This document shows positions 62,000 to 62,103 of a DNA stretch of 64,000 nt, piece after piece (the first letter of the stretch is position 1; each line of letters starts with the position of its first letter). The stretch comes from Eledone cirrhosa (Eukaryota), in NCBI GenBank assembly GCA_964016885.1, contig OZ024741.1, positions 118,668,001 through 118,732,000 of the forward strand, in the 5' to 3' direction. The notes beneath the pieces are model-generated. The model saw nothing but the letters and a program-made list of their open reading frames with translations, was not told the origin of the DNA and searched no databases. A program made the position numbers and the translations under genes.

Positions 62000-62103
62000 C
62001 AATAACTTACCTAGTTATTGAACGCACTGGTGGTAGATATCTTGTCTTTAATGTGTAGAAATATTTGAGACCCGCAGCAGACAACTGATGAGGAAAACTT
62101 CTC
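62000..62103 (+). ncRNA. Candidate scrambled-order hammerhead, diverged subfamily, in element ~61635-62133
   Basis: AGAUAU-C-UUGUC ... GAAAUAUUU ... GACAA-CUGAUGA, with spacing identical to the 48.5 kb copy and compensatory changes. Confidence 0.65.

Follow-up and report, generated by a model that had tools for sequence, protein, structure and literature searches.

A probable six-helix permuted hammerhead in a retrozyme-like repeat of Eledone cirrhosa

Three copies of an RNA motif, at 48.5, 49.0 and 62.0 kb of a 64-kb stretch of Eledone cirrhosa DNA (the window), have a sequence that we read as a hammerhead core in scrambled order, with stem II replaced by a four-way junction. We think it probable that this is a six-helix permuted hammerhead that likely cleaves itself, and that it likely processes a retrozyme-like element which a Penelope-type reverse transcriptase (RT) probably copies into (TA)n. 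Thousands of such motifs, the 62.0-kb one among them, lie in this 3.0-Gb genome, in at least 12 subfamilies of a non-coding repeat of 500-575 nt. No small ribozyme has been studied more closely than the hammerhead, whose three-stem junction is regarded as fixed. If the motif is self-cleaving, it would be a new architecture for this ribozyme; a natural family that keeps the catalytic core with stem II as a junction would test what stem II is for, and its thousands of natural variants would be supplied for structure-function work.

Table 1. Positions in the window of the 62.0-kb motif and its parts, the other two motif copies and the elements that carry them
Feature	Position	Strand	Details
Six-helix permuted hammerhead motif, 62.0-kb copy	61993..62098	+	subfamily B
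Helix a, 5' strand	61993..61999	+	pairs with 62092-62098; exit helix to the rest of the element
Hairpin b	62000..62020	+	62000-62007 with 62013-62020; predicted to stack directly on helix a
Helix c, 5' strand	62022..62026	+	pairs with 62052-62056; displaced stem II partner strand
Helix d, 5' strand	62027..62033	+	pairs with 62071-62077; counterpart of the SGC/CSG stem I-stem II helix
Block S	62036..62046	+	stem III strand 62036-62040, N17 = C62041, stem I strand 62042-62046
Predicted cut, 62.0-kb copy	62041/62042	+	
Conserved U-N-U-A-A linker	62047..62051	+	predicted minor-groove contact; role suggested by PMC11300833
Block G	62052..62065	+	helix c 3' strand, variable base 62057, G12-A13-A14-A15.1 at 62058-62061, stem III 3' strand
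Helix d 3' strand to helix a 3' strand	62071..62098	+	also stem I 3' strand 62080-62084, C3-A9 core 62085-62091, helix a 3' strand 62092-62098
Motif copy 1	48494..48597	+	subfamily A; N17 = C48541
Motif copy 2	49041..49144	+	subfamily A; N17 = C49088
Subfamily B element	61634..62128	+	about 0.9 unit, 5'-truncated, flanked by (TA)n tracts
Subfamily A element	48496..49222	+	1.33 units of 547 nt, two motifs, flanked by (TA)n tracts

The coordinates and spacing given in an earlier note on this DNA are exact: N17 is at 48541 and 62041 in the 48.5- and 62.0-kb copies, and in all three copies GAAA is at +17 and CUGAUGA at +44 from the predicted cleavage base. All five of the helices that it described exist, but it overlooked a sixth, helix a (61993-61999 with 62092-62098), in which the 5' end of the motif and the strand following CUGAUGA come together. 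Helix c is formed by the strand preceding G12 with one that lies 5' of the cleavage site, and hairpin b joins helices a and c. Some details taken from single copies have to be corrected. The 62.0-kb copy has five private substitutions (62031, 62054, 62065, 62066 and 62074) relative to the column majority of 28 relatives, two of which break helix d pairs, and the bulge that had been drawn there is a product of such substitutions. Its G-U pairs, from which the + strand had been argued to be functional, are also private and uninformative on strand; the + strand itself was the correct choice, marked as functional by the core and by G-U pairs fixed in whole subfamilies. The AAUCAG strand assigned to the 48.5-kb copy belongs to the 49.0-kb copy. 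The former is privately changed at 48574, and the latter at 49086, where one stem III pair is broken.

A covariance model built from 36 copies matched the window only at 48488-48603, 49035-49150 and 61989-62103 (107-125 bits; next best 15.5), by construction, since these three copies are among the 36 on which it was trained. GAAA followed by CUGAUGA within 15-30 nt occurs eight times in the window, against 0.35 expected: three of these sites are the motif copies, three are minimal hammerheads in ordinary order at ~42-43 kb, and two have no such structure by eye.

Genome-wide, at least 4,953 copies were counted with a pattern that consists only of the ends of helices a and b (control 0), and this number is a lower bound. 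Exact patterns through the core matched 1,356 and 2,114 times (controls 0 and 1). With the helix c GCG excluded, a pattern returned nothing beyond chance matches and known copies that are truncated or mutated. Because our first samples were selected via the core, we drew a core-independent sample for core statistics: 60 copies from the 100 listed of the 4,953 matches, all on one contig, skipping copies sampled earlier.

The helices are strongly supported by covariation. In the 36 hand-picked copies, 97.2% of cells are paired, compared to 26-48% for slid partners. In the 58 distinct core-independent copies the figures are 95.0% and 25-47%, and 15 of 32 pairs have changed on both sides; in this sample the search pattern fixed helix b and part of a, the model fitted a, b, d and III, and c and stem I were free. 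To limit the effect of relatedness, we clustered 195 copies into 12 clusters of at least three (137 copies), excluding 54 copies in smaller clusters and four that could not be parsed. The 12 subfamily majorities keep 399 of 408 pairs, eight of the nine unpaired cells being in the outer pairs of helices a and c. Fourteen of the 34 pairs have changed on both sides among subfamilies (a 1, b 3, c 1, d 5, stem III 1, stem I 3), including five of the six pairs of helix d. Stems I and III are 97% and 95% paired, with double changes. When copies were clustered by their flanks only, the subfamily pair types came out the same for the 70 of 150 that were in clusters of at least three. Support is weakest for helix c, whose three inner pairs do not vary between subfamilies and whose fifth is often mismatched. 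All 12 subfamilies have C-G at the first pair of helix d and, after a bulge of 0-1 nt, at the two pairs of helix a nearest the core. Single-sequence folding recovers a and b (z -1.6 to -2.6), crossing helices being beyond this method; for intact copies the prediction includes helices a, b, d and III.

In the core-independent sample of 60, non-majority letters make up only 18 of the 658 at the 11 strict core positions (2.7%, about what private mutation gives), compared to 18.5% in helices and 19.9% in joiners, and each strict position is kept in 56-60 copies. N17 is A in 37 copies, C in 22, a gap in one and never G, so the AUC triplet, which had been called invariant and which is UUC in the 49.0-kb copy, is not. 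N7 is U in 36 copies, C in 21 and A in three. The hammerhead consensus leaves N7 and N17 free and excludes G at 17, and the core of the motif varies as this consensus permits. The full set of core residues is present (C3-U4-G5-A6-N7-G8-A9, G12-A13-A14, A15.1-U16.1 and H17), with stems I and III on either side of the cleavage site. Helix d supplies the link between stem I and the stem II arm, a tertiary role suggested by the SGC layout. The selection on structure and catalysis that had been proposed from three copies is thus borne out well beyond them for the structure and the hammerhead core, while catalysis itself is what we infer from these. Private changes hit core, helix and unpaired positions equally (1.3, 1.6 and 1.0% in subfamily A; 3.6, 3.1 and 3.0% in B, non-CpG), and this pattern indicates that selection acted on source RNAs, and that inserted copies decay neutrally.

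The usual stem II could not be found. From 240 GAAA...CUGAUGA sites in the genome we took the 178 in which stems I and III each have at least four of five pairs, a threshold that only five of 144 unrelated sites reach. The cleavage-site offset is -17 in 176 of the 178, and the blocks follow each other in the order S, G, C, as in type-SGC hammerheads. A direct stem II of 4 bp between the strand after A9 and the strand before G12 is possible in none of the 178, even with up to two bases skipped on each side, and at these sites the two strands cannot pair in cis or in trans. Both flanking bases vary freely: in the 60 copies any of the four letters or none follows A9, and U, A or C precedes G12. 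A direct stem II through an internal loop was rejected, since it is possible in subfamily A and not conserved in B. Blocks C and G are thus not joined by stem II, and because this test failed we do not file the motif as a type-SGC member; it would work like a hammerhead with SGC order, yet outside that type.

Blocks S, G and C were defined by Eckert et al. 2023 (PMC10085705), who reported in vitro cleavage of SGC, CSG and one GCS RNA and assumed CUGAnGA and its adjacent paired strands to be inseparable. Its SGC examples come from metatranscriptomes only, and genomes of known organisms gave only a single bacterial GCS candidate. The SGC rows run from stem III through N17, stem I, a short linker and a stem II strand ending in C to GAAA, and on through a bridge strand, stem I, CUGAUGA, an optional U, a stem II strand and a bridge strand. 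The CSG rows, two metagenomic sequences, lead from a stem II strand through the bridge helix to the cleavage block. Our motif shares with type SGC the order cleavage site - GAAA - CUGAUGA, stems of 5 bp, a short U/A linker that leads from stem I into the strand preceding GAAA, a helix that bridges stem I and the stem II arm, and an optional base after A9 followed by G. It differs in that SGC has a direct G10.1-C11.1 stem II, whereas in the motif the partner strand sits 5' of the cleavage site and is joined to A9 by two extra helices. With type CSG it shares the link from stem II strand through the I/II helix and stem III strand to the cleavage site, and a UUAA-type linker before the G block; in CSG, however, the C block comes first and stem II is normal, while the motif adds a G-to-C link and is opened after A9. 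All the SGC and CSG rows that we read have C directly before GAAA, unlike the motif.

These alignments suggest that SGC, CSG and GCS are one circle opened at three different links. The motif would carry all three links, with its opening in a fourth position that separates A9 from the stem II partner strand, and helix a and hairpin b would clamp the opening as a four-way junction of core, a, b and c. The + strand RNA would then cleave itself after N17 (C62041 in the 62.0-kb copy), and its 5' product would remain base-paired over ~20 bp, in helices a, c, d and III, so that re-ligation or circularisation would be favoured. The full version of this proposal, an active hammerhead with a fourth permutation opening, a split stem II and a self-ligating lock that drives a retrozyme family of thousands of copies in an animal genome, is one that we hold tentatively and rate slightly below an even chance.

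Weak or replaced helices II appear to be tolerated in natural hammerheads, given two precedents: a one-pair stem II and a U-U start are active (PMC3088659), and in the PK hammerhead (PDB 8YDC, PMC11300833) a pseudoknot replaces helix II, with an A-rich linker in the minor groove and G10.1-C11.1 kept. The motif resembles the latter in that a different helix, itself stacked on one more, would take the role of helix II, accompanied by an A-rich strand in the minor groove. It differs in that the PK hammerhead keeps G10.1-C11.1 and the circular C-G-S order, and its connectivity is pistol-like, not SGC-like. In the stacking that we modestly prefer, helix c occupies the helix II slot, core, c and d run beside stem I, and a and b form a side arm. 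The UUUAA linker would dock on the first C-G pair of helix d; because three positions of U-N-U-A-A are invariant in 60 of 60 copies and this pair is the same in all 12 subfamilies, we believe that the contact may be like that of the PK hammerhead. The same ribozyme could instead place helix a in the helix II slot, with b and c as side arm and the broken link leading into G12. This would keep a G10.1-C pair under A9-G12, would account for the constant core-proximal pairs of helix a after their 0-1 nt bulge, and would give the residue after A9 the place that it has in the SGC rows (PMC10085705) and in Penelope hammerheads (PMC4209133). We consider this arrangement the less likely of the two, since it is c rather than a that both the linker and helix d tie to the far end of stem I, which is the position of helix II, and since a and b adjoin without an unpaired base, which would favour their stacking on each other.

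Turning to the repeat itself, 28 natural units from cut site to cut site are 500-574 nt long and 67-71% pyrimidine on the + strand, and no conserved ORF or conserved minus-strand core was found in them. The surrounding bodies, which had been said barely to align between the 48.5- and 62.0-kb regions, are homologous (55% identity ignoring gaps, 36% counting them, vs 71-72% in the ribozyme). A viroid-like rod was rejected, with 36-40% of bases paired in two units, and so was a minus-strand ribozyme, with CUGANGA on that strand in one of 28 units. Two small structures were seen in the unit body: a hairpin at alignment columns 401-412 (window ~48955-48966) with a UUAA/UUAU loop and a 4-bp stem that differs between subfamilies, noticed by eye and not predicted by RNAalifold, and a 6-bp stem at columns 218-243 (window ~48800-48812 region), which the prediction gives for 10 of 13 units and which the B group lacks. 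As in animal non-LTR retrozymes, there is one hammerhead in each non-coding tandem unit of a few hundred bases, with <45% G+C and a high copy number. The differences are that known ones have type I hammerheads, whereas the order here is S-G-C, and that this element forms only short arrays, of up to ~2.5 units among those seen, which are scattered in (TA)n. Its units exceed the 150-450 bp given for animal retrozymes in PMC7229834 and fit the 51-972 bp given in a 2026 preprint (10.64898/2026.07.22.740005).

The insertions look like those of Penelope-like elements. We kept 136 of 188 aligned pieces (not at a locus edge, and at least 82% identical to a natural unit), of which 124 end 60-170 nt past the cut site, 95 of these being followed by (TA)3. 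Twenty-six of the 124 cross the upstream cut site seamlessly, three exceed two units, and 99 are under 1.2 units. Next to the 5' end there is often a truncated copy in inverted orientation. Partial tandems, inverted copies and a (TA)n bias are Penelope-like traits (PMC8557442), and with 5' truncation and a hammerhead in the repeat they are shared with these elements as described in PMC8557442 and PMC4209133, as would be expected of a non-autonomous member. In contrast to Penelope-like elements, whose hammerheads are minimal type I, the unit has no RT or GIY-YIG ORF, such as an autonomous element has; no ORF is conserved across the 28 units. The insertion pattern matches both Penelope-like elements and the retrozyme concept. 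Tandem + strand transcripts would be cut to unit length, a circular or re-ligated unit RNA would serve as template, and reverse transcription, primed at UA-rich sites 60-170 nt past the cut site, could pass the site again, the element being mobilised by a Penelope-type enzyme.

No autonomous partner with shared sequence was found in the 188 own-genome loci searched. Elements near the copies carry GIY-YIG domains, and ORFs nearby (RT with a PHD finger, GIY-YIG fragments) were considered as partners and rejected, because they start at variable truncation points or beyond (TA)n; the neighbouring ORFs examined belong to separate insertions. One neighbouring Penelope-like ORF had no match in a Pfam search, and its Atlas look-alikes with recorded taxa are eukaryotic, commonest in animal phyla. 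We also noted a LINE family in which RT is directly followed by a PHD finger (L003:1599-2945, L030:1580-3106, L012:2472-3110 and L065:2482-3051), truncated copies of which lie just downstream of four ribozyme elements, and a near-complete Penelope-like element (L155:2956-6501, - strand) that has an inverted terminal repeat, carries a degenerate hammerhead-like sequence at the 3' end and is inserted beside a subfamily E element; no sequence common to it and the unit was detected.

The element might instead be copied from linear transcripts, either like a SINE or as the terminal repeat of an undiscovered autonomous Penelope-like element, with the ribozyme only trimming and no circle. Template jumping can yield tandems, most pieces are shorter than 1.2 units, and Xenopus retrozymes match Penelope terminal repeats (preprint 10.64898/2026.07.22.740005). 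The 5' ends show no step or pile-up at the cut site (hazard 0.31, 0.21, 0.23 and 0.20 per 50 nt across it), so the genome bears no cleavage footprint, and the hazard rises broadly about 100 nt downstream of the upstream cut site, which fits linear copying, although UA-rich microhomology could explain this rise as well. Against linear copying are the pieces that cross the cut site seamlessly, the three pieces longer than two units, and the fact that no copy is joined to an ORF in the loci examined. On balance we regard it as a serious but less likely route than copying through circular or re-ligated units.

That the source RNAs were catalytic under some condition seems to us very probable. Catalysis might be conditional, depending on a protein, a second copy or a switch of the a/b/c junction, so that the naked monomer is slow or silent. 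The closing pair of stem II is absent, Penelope minimal hammerheads cleave poorly and as dimers (PMC4209133), eight of nine Xenopus retrozyme dimers were uncleaved (preprint 10.64898/2026.07.22.740005), and many copies here read through the cut site. Yet stem III is complete with 5 bp, which removes the usual cause of dimer dependence, the strand preceding G12 could not find the strand after A9 in a second copy any more than in its own, and four of the helices are predicted to form in intact copies, all of which makes dependence of this kind improbable in our view. Even less probable, and in our opinion hardly to be expected, is a non-catalytic fold of hammerhead descent retained only as an RT recognition signal: it would lie suitably just upstream of the priming sites, but variation is confined to N7, N17 (never G) and the joiners, as catalysis would predict and binding would not. 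Pairing by chance in neutrally diverging repeats is already refuted, for although the copies are related and cell counts therefore overstate independent events, the subfamily majorities differ by double changes with only nine unpaired cells, slid controls pair in just 25-47% of cells, and both stems are complete (5/5) in 115 of 240 own sites and in none of 144 unrelated ones.

Hammerhead variants have reportedly been described by Weinberg in 2015 and Lunse in 2016. None of the papers listed in a search of open-access literature and preprint main texts describes this architecture or reports a eukaryotic genome with a non-circular hammerhead. The excerpts of PMC10162972 and PMC6765202 say nothing of this architecture, and those of a 2026 paper (PMC13725137) mention variants with extra helices by citation only. 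For the motif (61950-62115), Rfam returned no hammerhead family at E up to 10, as expected because the order is pseudoknotted, and over the window the matches listed (150 of 301) are only microRNA matches driven by microsatellites. If our reading is correct, whole classes escape hammerhead searches of eukaryotic repeats, and this bears on the apparent lack of hammerheads in some Penelope-like clades; such ribozymes may also occur, overlooked, in clades now described as hammerhead-free, because no standard descriptor or Rfam model detects them.

Two contig sets confirm no more than the presence of the repeat in the reads of one sample, which may be the source of the assembly. Outside this genome, tight patterns gave no matches in viral and metagenome contigs. 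A looser pattern gave 17 matches in prokaryotic genomes and 16 in metagenomes, and a very loose one 122 viral matches from one of 64 parts; none of these has both stems complete, and the best model score among them is 20.4 bits, compared to 77-127 for true copies. The best scorer, on metagenome contig L217 (289-396, - strand), does not keep the helices and is probably a chance match.

The window also holds other hammerheads and repeats. A type I hammerhead-like sequence in ordinary order lies at 48240-48297 on the + strand, 200 nt upstream of the subfamily A element past a (TA)n tract; it consists of CUGAUGA, stem II, GAAAC, a 3-bp stem III and a short stem I, and had no match in an Rfam search. 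At 43227-43450, on both strands (and at 41977-42013 on the - strand), there is an inverted pair of repeat ends with a minimal type I hammerhead whose long stem II and palindromic stem III are typical of Penelope-like termini, and which is the source of an Rfam MIR4371 match. A broken LINE at 23895-27343 (+) has endonuclease, RT and zf-RVT domains spread over three frames, and there is a separate zf-RVT fragment at 59529-60176 (+). Finally, a G+C-rich tandem array at 28000-38000 has an extreme strand skew, with GC skew down to -0.72.
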